Positions 25,450 through 39,000 of a stretch of DNA of 48,925 nt are shown one piece after another. Under the pieces are notes generated by a model. That model ran no database searches. It saw nothing but the letters and a program-made list of their open reading frames with translations, and was not told the origin of the DNA. The stretch's first letter is position 1. Every line of letters starts with the position of its first letter. The DNA comes from a virus (taxonomy: Duplodnaviria; Heunggongvirae; Uroviricota; Caudoviricetes), in IMG/VR virus record IMGVR_UViG_3300045988_151382; one strand, written 5' to 3'. Position numbers and translations under genes: made by a program.

Positions 25450-25525
25450 TGGTGGCCCCTACCGGATTTGAACCGATGACCGTGCGATTATGAGTCGCCT
25501 GCTCTAACCACTGAGCTAAGGGGCC
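25450..25525 (-). tRNA. tRNA with CAU anticodon (Met or Ile2/lysidine type), CCA encoded
   Basis: Minus-strand sequence GGCCCCTTAGCTCAGTGGTTAGAGCAGGCGACTCATAATCGC...GGTTCAAATCC...AGGGGCCACCA; 7-bp acceptor stem, D-loop AGCTCAGTGGTTAGAGC, T-loop TTCAAAT. Confidence 0.8.
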
Positions 25526-27301: not shown

Positions 27302-27314
27302 TGAAATCCTCGTT

Positions 27315-27345
27315 AAAAAAAAAGCCCCGCCGAAAAAGGCAGGGC
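27315..27345 (-). terminator. Rho-independent terminator immediately upstream of the lysis cassette (minus strand)
   Basis: 8-bp stem GCCCTGCC/GGCGGGGC followed by nine T on the minus strand, then SD GAGGA and holin ATG. Confidence 0.6.
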
Positions 27346-27491
27346 TTCATAAAGCAACAAATTACGCGGTAATCGCTTAACGCAGTTTTACTACGTTAAA
27401 TGAAACACTACACCCAGTTACCACCTAAAACAAGGTTTCTTCATAAAAAAACCTTCAAAATGTGGTTGATCGATCAATAAAAAAACAATAC

Positions 27492-27767
27492 TCACAGTAG
27501 TGCAGAAAAGAATAGCGGCTTAACTGCTTTCCTCACCTCACTAGCGTACATCCCCGCAGCTATCTCAGTTGTGAACAAACGCCCTCCAACTAGCCATGCA
27601 ACAGGTGCAGATGCCAGGGATGCCAGTGCAATTTCATCTGTAGCAAGCTCTCTTTCAAGATATTCACGAAATCCGGGGTTAATAGTTACCGTATCCAACA
27701 TTCTCTGGCGCGCTTCCTTACGTTCACGAATATGGGCAATCAATTGCTCTTTGGTAAAAGTAGCCAT
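27492..27767 (-). CDS. Small protein, member of 3-paralog family
   Basis: Starts MATFTKEQLIAHIRERKE at internal Met; paralogs at 27769..28182 and 28193..28456 share N-terminal motif and upstream leader. Confidence 0.45.
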   Translation of the reverse strand: MATFTKEQLIAHIRERKEARQRMLDTVTINPGFREYLERELATDEIALASLASAPVAWLVGGRLFTTEIAAGMYASEVRKAVKPLFFSALL

Positions 27768-27768
27768 A

Positions 27769-28182
27769 TCACTTCCCTTTCCCCTGAAGCATAGCGGCGC
27801 GGCAGGCGTTCCAGCCTGTAGCGTATGCAGCCGCTTTGCTGCTGCCTTCAACTGGCGCATCCTGCCAATACATTTCATCCGGCACTACCGGCGCTGGCAA
27901 GGCAGCGTGATAGTAGAGTGGCATAGTTTTGTACAGTGGTTCGCCAGGACTTCCGTCAACCTGATTCCATTCTTCAACCCAGGCATCAACAACCGCTTTG
28001 CTGGTTGATACATGTTCTTCTGAATCTACATTTTGTCCTGATATACAGAACATAACTGCCTCTGCTTCCAGCGATGCCAGAGCAATTTCATAAGCCCGAC
28101 GCTCAATATTGTCTCGGACGTCCAGGCTGCCTATGCGCTCTTTGATTTCTTTAATCAGTTCTTTGTCGGTAAAAGTAGTCAT
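27769..28182 (-). CDS. Small protein, member of 3-paralog family
   Basis: Starts MTTFTDKELIKEIKERIG. Confidence 0.45.
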   Translation of the reverse strand: MTTFTDKELIKEIKERIGSLDVRDNIERRAYEIALASLEAEAVMFCISGQNVDSEEHVSTSKAVVDAWVEEWNQVDGSPGEPLYKTMPLYYHAALPAPVVPDEMYWQDAPVEGSSKAAAYATGWNACRAAMLQGKGK

Positions 28183-28192
28183 GTGTTAGTCC

Positions 28193-28456
28193 TTATCCTG
28201 CTGTGCTTTCAACTGATGAGGGGAACAAAATCTTTTCATCAAACCCTGCATTCATATCATGGACAGCAACACACCAATCCATTGACGAACGATTATCAAG
28301 AGCCTCCATGATTTCATCCATGCGGCGCAGGTCATACAGGTAAATGCTTTTATCGCCAATGGTGTAAAAACCAATTTTTTTCGGTGATGGGCAGCGATCA
28401 AGAACGTCCTGTAATTCGTTCAACCATGCCCGTTCTTTTTTTGTTAAAGTTGCCAT
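28193..28456 (-). CDS. Small protein, member of 3-paralog family
   Basis: Starts MATLTKKERAWLNELQD at internal Met. Confidence 0.4.
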   Translation of the reverse strand: MATLTKKERAWLNELQDVLDRCPSPKKIGFYTIGDKSIYLYDLRRMDEIMEALDNRSSMDWCVAVHDMNAGFDEKILFPSSVESTAG

Positions 28457-28457
28457 A

Positions 28458-28952
28458 TCACTCTCCTTTGATGCGAATGCCAGCGGCGCGTGGCACATTA
28501 ACTTCCACGATGCGCACTGTTGGTTTGTACATCTCAATCTCTGTCAGCCAGTCAGCTCCTGTCATGCGCTTTTCCGCATCGCCATTAGTCCACTGAACCG
28601 GTACACCAATAGCCTTCATCGCGATTTCTATTTCCCCGGCAATGGCGCTTTTTCCGCAACCAGTAAAACCAGAAACAACGACAAGAACTTCACCTTTGGC
28701 TGGTTTTATTTCCCGTGCTTCCAGTTCTGCAATGCGCTTTTTGTCTGCTTCCCGTTCATCCAGTAGTGCCAGCACGGTTTCTGGTCCGGCCAGAAATTTG
28801 AAGGCGTTGAGCGCATCAATATCCACACCGTAATCTTTAAGTTCCTGTTCACTTAACAAATCATCATCAGCTGGCAACATTAACAGGCGTTCCATTGCTG
28901 GAATTGCACGTTCCGCCGCCTCACGCAGTGCCTGGTAATTAATTTCGCTCAT
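28458..28952 (-). CDS. Ea22-like lambdoid accessory protein
   Basis: N-terminal MSEINYQALREAAE motif recalled from lambdoid Ea22-like family; shares terminal blocks with the next two genes. Confidence 0.45.
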   Translation of the reverse strand: MSEINYQALREAAERAIPAMERLLMLPADDDLLSEQELKDYGVDIDALNAFKFLAGPETVLALLDEREADKKRIAELEAREIKPAKGEVLVVVSGFTGCGKSAIAGEIEIAMKAIGVPVQWTNGDAEKRMTGADWLTEIEMYKPTVRIVEVNVPRAAGIRIKGE

Positions 28953-29590
28953 TGGTTGCCTCCTTTGCGAAGCTGGGCAGCGAACCTATCAGCTGCATCC
29001 GCGCAAGCAGAAGCAACGGAATCAAAAAATGGATCATCTCCTGTATCGCGCATCGTCAAAGCGAATGCCTCCACCCCTTGTGCCTGTATTTCTACAAGGG
29101 ATGCCTTAGATGTACTGCTTTTCGCCTCGCCTAATTCGTTATGAGCGATGTTCGCTATACATGCGATGTCTATATCTGGATGATTAATTGGGCAATGGCT
29201 AAGAATTGCCTCAAGTGCTGCTTTTTTGCTTTGGCATTCCGCCACCAGCGCCCCGCAATTGCTTTCATATTCGGCAATACGCTGTTTAGCAGCCTCCAGC
29301 TCAACACGCAGCTTCTCAAGCGTTAGAGCCATCTCCATGTTCTCGTCCAGCAGTTCAATCACATCAGGATCGCTATCATCAACTACTGTTATGCGCGATT
29401 TTTTGTAATGCTCGTCAGCATAAGTTCGTCCAGTTTTGAAGCATCCGTCGTCCTCCATGCCGGAACAGGCATAAACGACATGTGATCCAGATATGCGCTG
29501 CATTGACATTTCCTCGCCACAAACAGAGCATTTAGGCGCTGGTTTCGGTGAAAAACGTTCACGTAACGTATGATAGTAAAGCTCGCTCAC
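28949..29590 (-). CDS. Ea22-like protein with Cys-rich zinc-ribbon-like segment
   Basis: 213 aa; CSVCGEE...YACSG..GC cysteines; C-terminal AAQLRKGGNQ shared with 29587..30396. Confidence 0.4.
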   Translation of the reverse strand: MSELYYHTLRERFSPKPAPKCSVCGEEMSMQRISGSHVVYACSGMEDDGCFKTGRTYADEHYKKSRITVVDDSDPDVIELLDENMEMALTLEKLRVELEAAKQRIAEYESNCGALVAECQSKKAALEAILSHCPINHPDIDIACIANIAHNELGEAKSSTSKASLVEIQAQGVEAFALTMRDTGDDPFFDSVASACADAADRFAAQLRKGGNQ

Positions 29591-30396
29591 TGGCTGCCTC
29601 CTTTGCGAAGCTGTTCAGCGATATCTTCGAGAACGCCATCAGAGAATGAGCGGTCAAAATCGCCTTCCGGCGCATTAGCCATAAACTCAGTAGAGGTAAG
29701 AATCATCCGGGCAATATCCGCGGCGTTCTTCGCAGTATCATCAATAAAACCAGCTTCCCAGGCAGCCAGCATTCTGTTCGCCACAAAGTAAGCTCCCTCC
29801 TTGCGTGCTTCAGTCTTCACTTCATCCAGGAAAGCATCGGTGGCTGGGGTTTCGACATTAGGTCGAAGCTCATAATCACAAACTCTTTCAATCCATGGTG
29901 ATACTCTGTCGCATTTCCTCTTCTTGCGTTCACCGACCTTGGTTGCCTGCTGAATAATTACCCCCCAGCAAATGCTTTCGACCTCTTCGCTCCATCCATC
30001 GCAAGCATCGCCTCTATAGTCGTCAATTGCAGCCTCAGCAGCAGCGATAGCCTCCTCAGCAGTTTTGTGACACTCGAAACTAAATTCAGAGCCATATGAG
30101 AAATACATAGCCCCGGCCTTAAGCCCCGCATTCTCCGCCACCAGCGCCGCGAGATTAGTCTCAAGCTCTGCAATTCGACACATAGCATCAATATTTGTGT
30201 CCTCCAGCCGCTTAATTTCATCCAGAAGCGCCAGCACAATATGTGGCGTTATCAAGGACTCAAATTCGGCAACAGCTTGCTCGCCTCGCTTGTAATTCTT
30301 AATCCCACCTAAATTTTTCGCGTTCTGTGCCGCCTCACGCAGTGCCTGGTAATTAATTTCGCTCACTGGTTGCCTCCTGAATACGCTTAAACTCAA
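29587..30396 (-). CDS. Ea22-like protein
   Basis: 269 aa; contains SEINYQALREAAQ and C-terminal EQLRKGGSQ. Confidence 0.45.
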   Translation of the reverse strand: MSLSVFRRQPVSEINYQALREAAQNAKNLGGIKNYKRGEQAVAEFESLITPHIVLALLDEIKRLEDTNIDAMCRIAELETNLAALVAENAGLKAGAMYFSYGSEFSFECHKTAEEAIAAAEAAIDDYRGDACDGWSEEVESICWGVIIQQATKVGERKKRKCDRVSPWIERVCDYELRPNVETPATDAFLDEVKTEARKEGAYFVANRMLAAWEAGFIDDTAKNAADIARMILTSTEFMANAPEGDFDRSFSDGVLEDIAEQLRKGGSQ

Positions 30397-30979
30397 TTAC
30401 CCATACCCACGGGTTAGATAGCCAGTTCTCTTGCCCGTAAATACCGCGCCAGATATCACCAAAGCCAACGCGATAAACCGCTTCCGGCGGTGTAATCTTG
30501 TACGTCGCCGGAGATGCACCTTCCGCTTTAGCATCTGCCTCGCTCATGTCATGTAGCCGTTCCACACGCACGTCGGTTATTTCCAACAGAATACGGCTGG
30601 CCCAACGTGGCATGTGAATTGATGGGGTCCAACCCTCAGCTGGCTTGCTACTATCTGAGTAATCAGCCTTGTAATCACACAGTTCAGAAGCCAGAGAGAC
30701 ACCATCTTTGATTTCCTGAATGACATCGTTATCCAGCCAAAAAGCGTTGAATGTTTCACGTACCCATATGCGATCACCAACGTTACCGAACGGGCATAAA
30801 CCATGTTCAGGTGCATCCATAACGTGGGTATAGACACCATTGCGTTTCTTTGTCGGTTTACGGATAACCAGGCAGTTATCGGCCCTGACATTTTTTACAG
30901 GTCGGCGAGTCTGCGTCTTCCTTCCTTCGAGGATGGCCCTAACCATATCGTCATTAAAAACAACACCACGTTCTTTCAT
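30353..30979 (-). CDS. Conserved prophage protein (possible ASCH/PUA-like fold)
   Basis: 208 aa; N-terminal DDMVRAILEGRKTQTRR motif recalled from prophage hypothetical proteins; assignment uncertain. Confidence 0.3.
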   Translation of the reverse strand: MKERGVVFNDDMVRAILEGRKTQTRRPVKNVRADNCLVIRKPTKKRNGVYTHVMDAPEHGLCPFGNVGDRIWVRETFNAFWLDNDVIQEIKDGVSLASELCDYKADYSDSSKPAEGWTPSIHMPRWASRILLEITDVRVERLHDMSEADAKAEGASPATYKITPPEAVYRVGFGDIWRGIYGQENWLSNPWVWVIEFKRIQEATSERN

Positions 30980-38093: not shown

Positions 38094-38115
38094 AAAAAAG
38101 GCCCCCGAAGGGGCC
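38094..38115 (-). terminator. Rho-independent terminator (minus strand)
   Basis: Stem GGCCCC/GGGGCC with 4-nt loop followed by TTTTTT on the minus strand, just downstream of small ORF 38122..38244. Confidence 0.55.
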
Positions 38116-38121
38116 TAATCG

Positions 38122-38244
38122 CTACTTGCTGCTAATGTTTATCGTCACATTCAGAGCGTTATCAGTAATCTTCCAACCCTCTCCATGTGGCGTAAACAAA
38201 GCTCCAGTAACAACGATAAAAATACACATACAGTATTTTTTCAT
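38122..38244 (-). CDS. Small hydrophobic peptide (about 40 aa)
   Basis: MKKYCMCIFIVVTGALFTPHGEGWKITDNALNVTINISSK from internal Met of ORF 38122..38304; own terminator. Confidence 0.3.
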   Translation of the reverse strand: MKKYCMCIFIVVTGALFTPHGEGWKITDNALNVTINISSK

Positions 38245-38559
38245 TGTATGGCCCTTACAGGCCGTTTCACGGCATCCCCACCGACGAAAACAACGCGAGA
38301 GCAAGCACGGCTGCTTGTGCTTGCATGTACGGCAACGGAGAATCCTCCCCTAAAGTCGGTGCCCGGGTGCGAATCGGCGGGAAGGTCCACAGGTATTTTA
38401 CGATTATTTTAAGATTAGTAATAGGAAAGAAATTAAACGAAAAAACTCGTTTATTTTCACAAAATCAGTAACCTACCCACAATCTGTGAGTTTGCAGGCA
38501 CAACAAGAACCACAATTTTTTGAAGCATAATAGTGGACTATTATTACCTTTTGGGTAAA

Positions 38560-38840
38560 ATTAACTTGCTGCTTGTGCTTGCGTGGTTGTTTATACAACA
38601 ACGTAATGCTGAAAGGACCGCGAATCCGATCAGCACGAAAGAACCGTCCTCAATAGGGCGGTTTTTTTGTTTCTGCCTACCAATAAACCCACGCTATGTG
38701 GTTGTCTCTGTTAAAATCCCGCCGTATTGACATGAATGCGCCATTGGTGGACACTTTCCGAGCCGTAGCAAAATCTACGGTCGGGATTGGAACCCCGTAG
38801 ACACAATGGCGCATACCGCGTTAGCGGTTTTTTTATGCGT
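38560..38840 (+). ncRNA. Candidate regulatory RNA region upstream of the antirepressor operon; two intrinsic terminators
   Basis: Terminators at about 38644..38668 (ACCGTCCT/AGGGCGGT stem then T7) and 38815..38834 (ACCGC/GCGGT stem then T7); no ORF; repeated GATTGGAACC element. Confidence 0.45.
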
Positions 38841-39000
38841 AAAGCACTGCTACACCCAAATTATGGTGGGGCGTGCGGGGGAGTCGTAAGACTCGCCGGT
38901 TCGTCATTGTGTCCGGTAGTTCCAACCCTGCACGTCTCACCACCCAATGATTGGAACCTGACGGTGGTGAGTATCCTTAACCTTTAAGGGAATCATCACA

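Follow-up and report, generated by a model that had tools for sequence, protein, structure and literature searches.

The closest described counterparts of the locus reported here are found in lambdoid phages. Short conserved boundary sequences lie between unrelated modules in these phages (PMC3029335), as they do in the present locus, where they measure 25–60 nt, coincide exactly with module boundaries and have homology breakpoints at the same positions; the model built on such sequences goes back to Susskind & Botstein (1978) and Clark et al. (2001), as cited in that article. The Ea22 proteins of the same phages (lambda Ea22, P22 EaD) have a C-terminal domain that varies, preceded by an N-terminal segment and a coil, and their genes are mosaics in which the N-terminus and the coil are common while the C-terminal domains are dissimilar (PMC10834534, PMC7093339). 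Ea22 favours lysogeny in lambda and Stx phages (PMC7093339), and its tetrameric assembly is known from experiments (PMC7093339, PMC10834534). The Ea22 family, its mosaicism, the boundary sequences and the presence of accessory-gene hotspots beside recombination genes are thus already known. In this study, we analysed a string of six small genes, designated A to F, in a 48,925-nt stretch of viral DNA (hereafter the window; IMG/VR record IMGVR_UViG_3300045988_151382), which is the reverse complement, at 100% identity, of Escherichia coli MS21199 plasmid pMS21199B (NZ_CP082049.1). This 49,445-bp circular plasmid, from a cerebrospinal fluid (CSF) isolate, carries the gene set of a phage-plasmid, i.e. 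RepA and ParA together with terminase, portal, capsid, contractile tail and baseplate functions. Genes A–F probably represent a hypervariable accessory segment at the distal end of the early operon of this 49-kb E. coli phage-plasmid, and the comparisons below make modular exchange by homologous recombination at conserved boundary sequences, as in the known model, the likely explanation of their arrangement.

All six open reading frames (ORFs) listed in a first-pass annotation of the window exist as described: A (27492–27767, 91 amino acids (aa)), B (27769–28182, 137 aa), C (28193–28456, 87 aa), D (28458–28952, 164 aa), E (28949–29590, 213 aa, GTG start) and F (29587–30366, 259 aa, GTG start), the earlier end coordinate of 30396 corresponding to an upstream TTG of the F ORF. 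They all lie on the minus strand, in one tightly packed and co-oriented gene string, and are preceded by gene G (30353..30979, minus strand, 208 aa, phrog_874), the first semi-conserved flank gene. High DNA identity between the array genes is confined to junctions of ~20–60 nt, each of which combines the final codons of the upstream gene with a perfect Shine-Dalgarno sequence at optimal spacing, a stop codon and the start of the next gene. Two types of junction, J1 and J2, were distinguished, and the cores of both are absent elsewhere in the 48.9-kb window. J1 has the consensus ..GGCATTCGCATCAAAGGAGAGTGA-N-ATG (here ..GGCATTCGCATCAAAGGAGAGTGA-T-ATGGCnACT...); the upstream protein ends in (A)AGIRIKGE (QGKGK in the case of B), the K-G-E codons spell AAGGAG, and the TGA stop lies one base before the ATG. 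Its copy between D and C (28439..28490, minus strand) reads ..GGCATTCGCATCAAAGGAGAGTGAT followed by ATGGC, with the tail AAGIRIKGE, AAGGAG within the K-G-E codons, the stop, a 1-nt spacer and the start, while the copy between B and A (27750..27801, minus strand) comprises the B tail ..RAAMLQGKGK, the Shine-Dalgarno-like GGGAAAGGGAAG, TGA, a 1-nt spacer and the ATG of A. Together these two copies form a 52-nt block of 73% identity (repeat D3).

The second junction, J2, has the consensus ..CGCAAAGGAGGCAACCA(A/G)TGAGC, or at greater length ..CAG(C/A)TTCGCAAAGGAGGCA(A/G)CCA(A/G)TGAGCGA..., and is present between E and D and between F and E, and with its 3' half between G and F. The upstream protein in this case ends in Q(L/I)RKGG(N/S)Q, the K-G-G codons spell AAGGAGG, and the stop codon overlaps the next start (ATGA or GTGA). 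At the E/D copy (28915..28983, minus strand; repeats D1 and D5) the E tail AAQLRKGGNQ, AAGGAGG and an ATGA overlap lead into the Ea22 N-terminal block of D; at the F/E copy (29553..29621, minus strand) the F tail AEQLRKGGSQ, AAGGAGG and a GTGA overlap lead into the diverged N-terminus of E; and the G/F half-copy (30329..30378, minus strand), which reads AGGAGGCAACCA and then GTGAGCGAAATT..., is 98% identical over 50 nt to the E/D copy (28915–28964; repeat D1), so that this block covers the starts of D and F. Identity of the J2 type extends into the first 13 codons of the Ea22-type genes. A DNA repeat previously placed at about 28960 and 29595 corresponds to an exact 18-mer, GCCTCCTTTGCGAAGCTG, which occurs exactly twice in the window (28958 and 29596) against a chance expectation of 0.

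Both junctions can be recognised in lambda itself, as the start of ea22, GTGAGCGAAATTAAC, equals the 3' half of J2, and its end, ggcattcgcatcaaaggagagtga, is the exact 5' half of J1 (gctggcattcgcatcaaaggagagtga), though no gene follows directly. Lambda Ea22 shares with D the exact tail AGIRIKGE, while its N-terminal block (VSEINSQALREAAEQA, with a GTG start) is common to D and F. Other known proteins carry tails of the same kinds (KGE in P22 EaD, QLRKGVQS in P22 EaE and QLRKGGNQ in HK446 Oad2). The '+GE' motif of the Ea22 C-terminus has been listed as of unknown significance by Dydecka et al., 2020 (PMC7093339); the K/R-G-E and QLRKGGNQ tails are most likely coding shadows of ribosome-binding sites and not functional parts of the proteins. 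Compared with the classical lambdoid linkers, those described here differ in that they can be read as a Shine-Dalgarno sequence plus stop and start codons and in that they leave a peptide signature on the upstream protein; furthermore, they are common to lambdoid, P1/D6-like and P2-like elements and to the present phage-plasmid group.

To assess the variability of the array, relatives were identified with a 7.3-kb query around it, and 16 of these were compared with the window. Dozens of 47–50-kb plasmids from E. coli, E. fergusonii, E. albertii and Klebsiella aerogenes, and related Yersinia phages, share the flanks, and besides the source no flank-sharing plasmid covers more than 65% of the query. 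The flanks are 97–99% identical in 16 of 16 relatives. Homology stops at 27489–27494, at the stop codon of A (or at 27829 in one relative that also carries A), and resumes at 30350–30371, at the junction of the G stop and the F start, indicating that A–F constitute exactly the hypervariable segment, of which gene A is the last cassette, with backbone homology restarting exactly at its stop codon. The stretch from the holin to gene I measures 1873–3648 bp in the relatives as opposed to 3862 bp here, and it contains differing sets of 4–8 ORFs, among them 0–2 Ea22-like genes as opposed to three here. Gene number, identity and order between the conserved flanks accordingly all differ among the 16 relatives, so that the genes are not conserved in fixed number and order, and the proposal of the first-pass annotation that this is a cassette array changing by recombination gains support from the variable content of these phage-plasmids with a common backbone. 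A search of genome contigs with the holin returned chromosomal prophages of other genera rather than backbone relatives.

The same annotation had regarded the genes as tandem paralogs, which would imply that A/B/C and D/E/F arose in place by local tandem duplication followed by divergence. That A and B share a PHROG, that D, E and F share a Pfam family, and that the 50-nt blocks at the starts of D and F are 98% identical are all in keeping with such an origin. However, protein identity among the array members falls to 35–41% (D/E/F; A/B) right past the junction blocks, which argues for an assembly of imported modules, while copies of each array gene with 93–100% identity are present in other phages, prophages and plasmids, in different neighbourhoods. 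Additionally, C is not homologous to A or B, and relatives with the same backbone hold other gene combinations, making local duplication very improbable. The wider distribution of the parts was also recorded. Of 5426 complete E. coli genomes, 3069 contain pieces of the array, for the most part within chromosomal prophages, while 80% or more of it is present in a single genome (the source), in one of 72,556 plasmids and in none of 50,697 phage records. Gene E is 93–98% identical at the DNA level to genes of D6/P1-like phage-plasmids, the exact A protein is found on 280 contigs, and the exact F protein is limited to ~10 contigs of 48–55 kb, i.e. to this plasmid lineage. The exact C protein is listed in 17,705 index blocks (at least 1,000 contigs), in lambdoid nin-like regions and in P2-like prophages, and gene C is therefore a very common portable cassette. 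J1 precedes C in the P2-like prophages also, where the two follow the gpA replication gene and ParM and adjoin portal and terminase genes, and the pair is likewise present in lambdoid prophages. The presence of C and J1 in P2-like and lambdoid prophages, together with that of E in D6/P1-like plasmids, indicates that the cassette pool crosses the lambdoid and P1-P2-Mu groups; a 2014 survey reported no recent exchange between these groups (PMC3945230).

Reuse of the two junctions was explored by scanning IMG/VR contigs for exact matches only. At least 120 contigs contain an exact copy of the J1 24-mer, and 77 instances with full flanks represent 13 upstream and 20 downstream classes in 45 combinations, the flanks being unrelated to one another; in nearly all of these the start codon lies one base past the stop, and conservation around the J1 core is limited to ~12 nt before and ~5 nt after it. 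The exact J2 25-mer is similarly present in at least 120 contigs, with 21 upstream and 20 downstream classes in 58 combinations among 113 instances. A conserved boundary sequence with unrelated sequence on both sides, as the module-boundary model predicts, was thus observed for both junctions. Furthermore, J1 and J2 are found between quite different genes in the relatives, where the tail of gene G changes with the cassette that follows (..RIQEATSERN, ..RIQEA, ..RIQGATSE or ..RIQGGNQ).

A different explanation holds that the junctions are kept only as translation-coupling signals or functional tails, with illegitimate joining producing the joints and selection retaining those that are in frame and well expressed. 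Each junction does have a perfect Shine-Dalgarno sequence 6 nt before the start as well as a stop/start overlap, and the J2 junctions have an invariant AAAGGAG core with a variable spacer and hence a variable tail. In loci chosen for the other junction, the invariant part of J2 is CGCAAAGGAG while differences in its spacer are accompanied by differences in the tail (GGNQ, GADK, GVQS and GSSQ), as expected if the ribosome-binding site dictates the peptide and not the reverse. It has also been reported that most phage mosaic joints occur without boundary homology (PMC3029335) and that traces of homologous recombination are found in only ~30% of mosaics (PMC3945230). Conversely, a Shine-Dalgarno sequence needs ~6 nt, yet 24–25 nt are identical between unrelated gene pairs, including seven synonymous sites, and the identity reaches into the first 13 codons of Ea22-type genes. 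In loci selected only for J2, 28 of 33 GIRIKGE tails use the identical 24 nt, all synonymous positions included, while the two codons just upstream of these tails vary freely. The homology breakpoints, moreover, coincide with the junctions (see below). On balance, we regard selection on translation signals without boundary homology as an unlikely account of the array.

To compile breakpoints, the window was aligned with backbone relatives, prophages selected with the holin and loci containing gene C, which gave 53 distinct BLASTN segments with 69 unique endpoints. A gene junction (seven in all) lies no more than 30 nt from 21 of these endpoints, compared with 11% expected (binomial p ~1e-5, a value that is descriptive only, the sequences being related and non-independent), and the endpoints shared by the backbone relatives coincide with the boundary sequences at 27489–27494 and 30350–30371. 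Endpoints also cluster within genes, namely at 28054–28091 in B, at 28717–28784 in the coil of D and at 30116–30234 in the coil of F. The last of these (30116..30234, minus strand) is a putative intragenic recombination hot spot in the coiled-coil segment, with the D cluster as its equivalent: among homologs of F, the same middle and C-terminal domains are attached to at least four unrelated N-terminal regions, with the joint in the AALAAENAGLKAG coil, in agreement with the published mosaicism of Ea22 genes (PMC10834534, PMC7093339).

The explanation we favour is therefore that of exchange at the boundaries, in which the ORFs would be modules taken from a common pool on which lambdoid, P1/D6-like and P2-like temperate elements of enterobacteria draw. 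With J1 and J2, the translation of successive small genes would be coupled along a string without promoters; because the junctions are identical in DNA between otherwise unrelated genes, they could at the same time act as short homology tracts for RecA or phage recombinases. Cassettes might in this way be swapped, added or deleted between co-resident phages, prophages and plasmids, while conserved stretches in the coiled coils would permit shuffling of N- and C-terminal domains within the Ea22-like proteins. The direct repeats of the array could additionally cause loss or gain by unequal exchange; for example, recombination between the two 50-nt copies, which are separated by 1,414 bp, would remove E and F. 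Recombination of the Redβ type requires a minimum of ~30 bp and tolerates divergence (PMC3945230), properties to which the junction model conforms.

A number of points weigh against this explanation. The evidence is a comparison of sequences, in which no recombination event was observed directly, and no single-strand-annealing recombinase was recognised on pMS21199B. Identity of the junctions could result from exchange combined with selection for strong translation signals, rather than being the cause of exchange. Apparent conservation of the cores is inflated by the use of exact-match scans, an effect partly controlled by the loci chosen for the other junction, and the non-independence of the breakpoint sequences has been noted above. 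Approximately 70% of the endpoints are not near a gene junction, and many of these fall on conserved motifs within genes; the exact D–E–F combination is unchanged on ~10–13 contigs, indicating that the array is stable on short time scales.

Short cassettes in an array, separated by repeats, could also suggest a site-specific cassette system driven by an integron, shufflon or invertase. Integron arrays are likewise made up of co-oriented, promoterless small ORFs of variable number with repeats between them; however, the present array has no integrase, attC hairpins or attI/Pc, and its junctions are coding and ribosome-binding sequence. The array repeats are direct and do not form hairpins, inverted repeats being only weak and distant with none local, no integrase or invertase adjoins the array, and lambda, P22 and P2-like prophages, which have no such system, carry the same junctions. 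An integron- or shufflon-type explanation was consequently rejected, there being neither a recombinase nor hairpin sites near the array, and it appears wholly improbable; exchange is presumably homologous instead of site-specific. It is conceivable, albeit rather unlikely, that J1 and J2, instead of being incidental leftovers, constitute a widespread selectable 'linker code' of standard connectors, each made up of a ribosome-binding site with stop and start codons, by which temperate phages, phage-plasmids and prophages of the lambdoid, P1/D6-like and P2-like lineages plug accessory or anti-defence modules into expressed operons by short-homology recombination, with the triple Ea22 array as a stack of modules against different host defences.

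Turning to the individual genes, the N-terminal peptides quoted for the three small proteins (MATFTKEQL in A, MTTFTDKEL in B and MATLTKKER in C) are present as described, whereas their description as three paralogs applies to A and B only. Both of these match phrog_5117 (A to profile positions 1–86 and B to 1–124 of 125, B thus being a full-length member), with 35% identity over 68 aa (BLASTP, E 6e-5); the N-terminal ~60 aa of A are homologous to B and its C-terminus is diverged. Gene C is a full-length phrog_1714 member unrelated to A and B, and it resembles A only in the first 8 residues, which are encoded by the junction. The near-identical upstream leaders reported for all three are common to A and C, while the leader of B is different. 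Gene B is itself chimeric, as its first ~43 codons are 92–96% identical to those of backbone relatives and the remainder is ~96% identical to Stx phages; the joint lies at the EIALASLEAE motif (28054–28091), which is also present in A (repeat D9). In RefSeq only the 41 initial codons of B are annotated, as a pseudogene. Since the 137-aa ORF is uninterrupted and can be aligned with phrog_5117 from one end to the other, this call represents an annotation problem, and the same exact protein is annotated on 19 other contigs.

The assignment of D, E and F as three Ea22-like proteins was borne out by Pfam, where all exceed the gathering score of 27 bits for Ead_Ea22 (PF13935), with 75.1 bits (E-value 1e-20) for D, 47.5 bits (3.5e-12) for E and 30.9 bits (4.7e-7) for F. 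The three predicted proteins appear to follow the Ea22 architecture, with the N-terminal block shared with lambda, coil segments that align over RIAELE..AENAGLK and variable C-terminal domains, those of D, E and F being unrelated to one another. Two sequence features had been attributed to all three, and each holds for two of them: the shared block SEINYQALREAA is present in D and F while E has SELYYHTLRERF instead, and the C-terminal QLRKGG(N/S)Q ends E and F while D ends in GIRIKGE. In comparison with lambda, there are three tandem copies here rather than one, the array lies on a phage-plasmid between the early operon and the lysis genes rather than between exo and xis, and no sequence similarity links the C-terminal domains to the solved lambda domain or to anything else in the PDB; a search of D, E, F and G against PDB chains gave nothing below E 0.1, including no match to the lambda Ea22 C-terminal domain.

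D comprises the N-terminal MSEINYQALREAA block, a coil and a C-terminal domain of ~72 aa. This domain (28461–28700) bears an invariant Walker-A-like SGFTGxGKSA and conserved EIEI, THADW and VRIVE motifs, and SG(F/Y/L)TGxGKSA is invariant in 21 diverse homologs. Domains of this type make up 448 clusters at 50% identity and are mostly located C-terminally on proteins of 110–620 aa; the D domain has no Pfam family, and Pfam recognised no partner domains on the long proteins that carry such a domain. With respect to a possible P-loop, the Walker-A-like motif is present in a domain of only ~72 aa, for which the AlphaFold2 (AF2) model (predicted local distance difference test (pLDDT) 79) has no strands or sheet assigned and a Foldseek search against the PDB returned only noise (best E 4.6), so that the idea stays at the level of the motif. 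The homologs end at ..VRIVE.N.P and then have different tails, and the RAAGIRIKGE tail of D is disordered in the AF2 model (pLDDT <50); the last ~10 aa of D thus belong to the junction rather than to the C-terminal domain. E is characterised by a Cys-rich insertion (CxxC...C...C) near its N-terminus, KCSVCGEE...YACSGMEDDGC at aa ~18–50 (29440–29540). Truncated 107-aa relatives of E are named 'ClpX C4-type zinc finger protein' by NCBI, and Pfam reported no ClpX C4 zinc-finger domain for E at E<=0.1.

F is an Ea22-like mosaic, which consists of an Ea22 N-terminus, a coil, a conserved middle domain (aa ~85–170) and a C-terminal module (aa ~172–256). In RefSeq it starts at an internal ATG (~30183), which removes both the Ea22 N-terminal block and the 'ead/Ea22-like' name. 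On the strength of its sequence context the GTG start at 30366 is to be preferred, since AGGAGG lies 6 nt upstream, the 50-nt block is 98% identical to that at the start of D, and lambda ea22 also starts with GTGAGCGAAATTAAC. The AF2 model of F, from an alignment of 20 sequences, was unusable (pLDDT 42), with helices at 41–79 of low confidence.

Regarding function, it was considered whether the array is an anti-defence island, the Ea22-like C-terminal domains each neutralising a host immune system (e.g. OLD-family nucleases) under arms-race diversification, a reading that concerns function and is compatible with recombination at the boundaries. According to a July 2026 preprint, the P2 OLD defence nuclease is bound and inhibited by HK446 gp27 (Oad2), a relative of EaE whose last residues are QLRKGGNQ; the preprint also reports that Oad2-type proteins occur fused to EaD/Ea22 proteins (bioRxiv 10.64898/2026.07.10.737580). 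F aa 128–256 are ~64% identical to P22 EaE over 129 aa and nearly identical over aa 172–256, and the array adjoins recombination genes, as does the hotspot described in that preprint. Against this, the similarity between Oad2 and F is limited to the coil, the ETPATDAFLAEV motif and the junction tail, in a local alignment of 96 columns with 32% identity and 32% gaps (E 4e-6) and without full-length homology. Relative to P22 EaE and Oad2, F has an additional Ea22 N-terminus and an extra middle domain, and the C-terminal parts of Oad2 and F are unrelated. Anti-OLD activity is, moreover, reported to be highly allele-specific, and inhibition of OLD was not seen with an Oad2 homolog of 54% identity (bioRxiv 10.64898/2026.07.10.737580); the documented Ea22 phenotype is pro-lysogenic (PMC7093339), and PADLOC returned no hits. 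NCBIfam likewise gave no meaningful hits. The notion of an anti-defence island is possible, though doubtful, and a counter-defence role for the array is only a lead; by analogy with lambda Ea22 and EaE/Oad2, the products of D, E and F would probably be oligomeric scaffolds that interact with the host or its defences.

The gene string to which the array belongs begins with a divergent XRE repressor, several ORFs of unknown function, a Ref-like nuclease and a DUF1064 Holliday-junction-resolvase-like protein, and continues with DUF3560, a MarR-like protein and genes I, H and G, followed by F, E, D, C, B and A. There are no exo, xis or int genes, but the position of the array downstream of the Ref-like and Holliday-junction-resolvase-like genes may be regarded as analogous to that of the lambdoid 'ea' or exo-xis region, which follows the recombination functions of the early operon and where the gene order is exo-orf60a-orf63-orf61-ea22-ea8.5-xis in lambda and erf-abc1-abc2-orf56-EaE-orf45-eaF-eaD-EaI-eaA-eaG in P22. 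Scans detected no minus-strand sigma-70 promoter within the array, no RNA family inside it (Rfam, whole window) and no anomaly of GC content along it (base composition). Just outside the array, gene G has two allelic forms among the relatives (203–208 aa and 227–230 aa), with an internal segment (30625–30755) replaced between flanks of 90–99% identity, i.e. an intragenic mosaic joint.

On its 3' side the array is followed by a strong terminator-like hairpin, two holins and a GH108 endolysin. The hairpin (27321..27348, minus strand), of the intrinsic terminator type with an 11-bp stem, seven GC pairs and a T-run, would close the array operon and is located ~20 nt upstream of the holin start (27301). 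It lies at the end of a ~190-nt intergenic leader (27302–27491) that is 98–99% conserved in 16 of 16 relatives, its T-run abuts the ribosome-binding site of the holin (..GGGGCTTTTTTTTTAACGAGGATTTCA-ATG), and a simple scan found no sigma-70 promoter in the leader. This layout, which recalls lambda pR'-tR' ahead of S, suggests that the lysis genes may be reached by antitermination or read-through. Elsewhere in the window, Rfam matches above the gathering score were obtained for ryfA (38094–38390, minus strand), isrK (38762–38834) and a C4 antisense RNA (38859–38947). This region (38094–38947) adjoins Rha/ORF6N (ant-like) genes, and the matches point to a putative P1/P7-type c4-ant immunity module on the phage-plasmid. 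A single tRNA (25450–25525, anticodon CAT) is tRNA-Ile in RefSeq and tRNA-Met according to ARAGORN and the record of a Yersinia phage.

Beyond what was known of Ea22 proteins and boundary sequences, the present analysis documents three Ea22-like genes in a row on a phage-plasmid. It also defines precisely, and counts, two connectors that are found in lambdoid, P1/D6-like and P2-like lineages alike, and it arrives at what is most likely the correct reading of the conserved tails, as Shine-Dalgarno shadows; no relevant literature linking Ea22 with phage-plasmids was found. The '+GE' C-terminus of Ea22 proteins is most likely explained in this manner, the Shine-Dalgarno sequence of the next cassette being translated as Lys/Arg-Gly-Glu. 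The recently reported connection of EaE/Oad2 with OLD makes D, E and F candidates for defence-system screens. The locus represents an unusually clean and quantifiable case of the boundary-sequence model, in which two connectors of ~25–50 nt join dozens of unrelated modules, and the defined connectors make that model directly testable. The findings thereby refine, but do not change, the current understanding of phage mosaicism.

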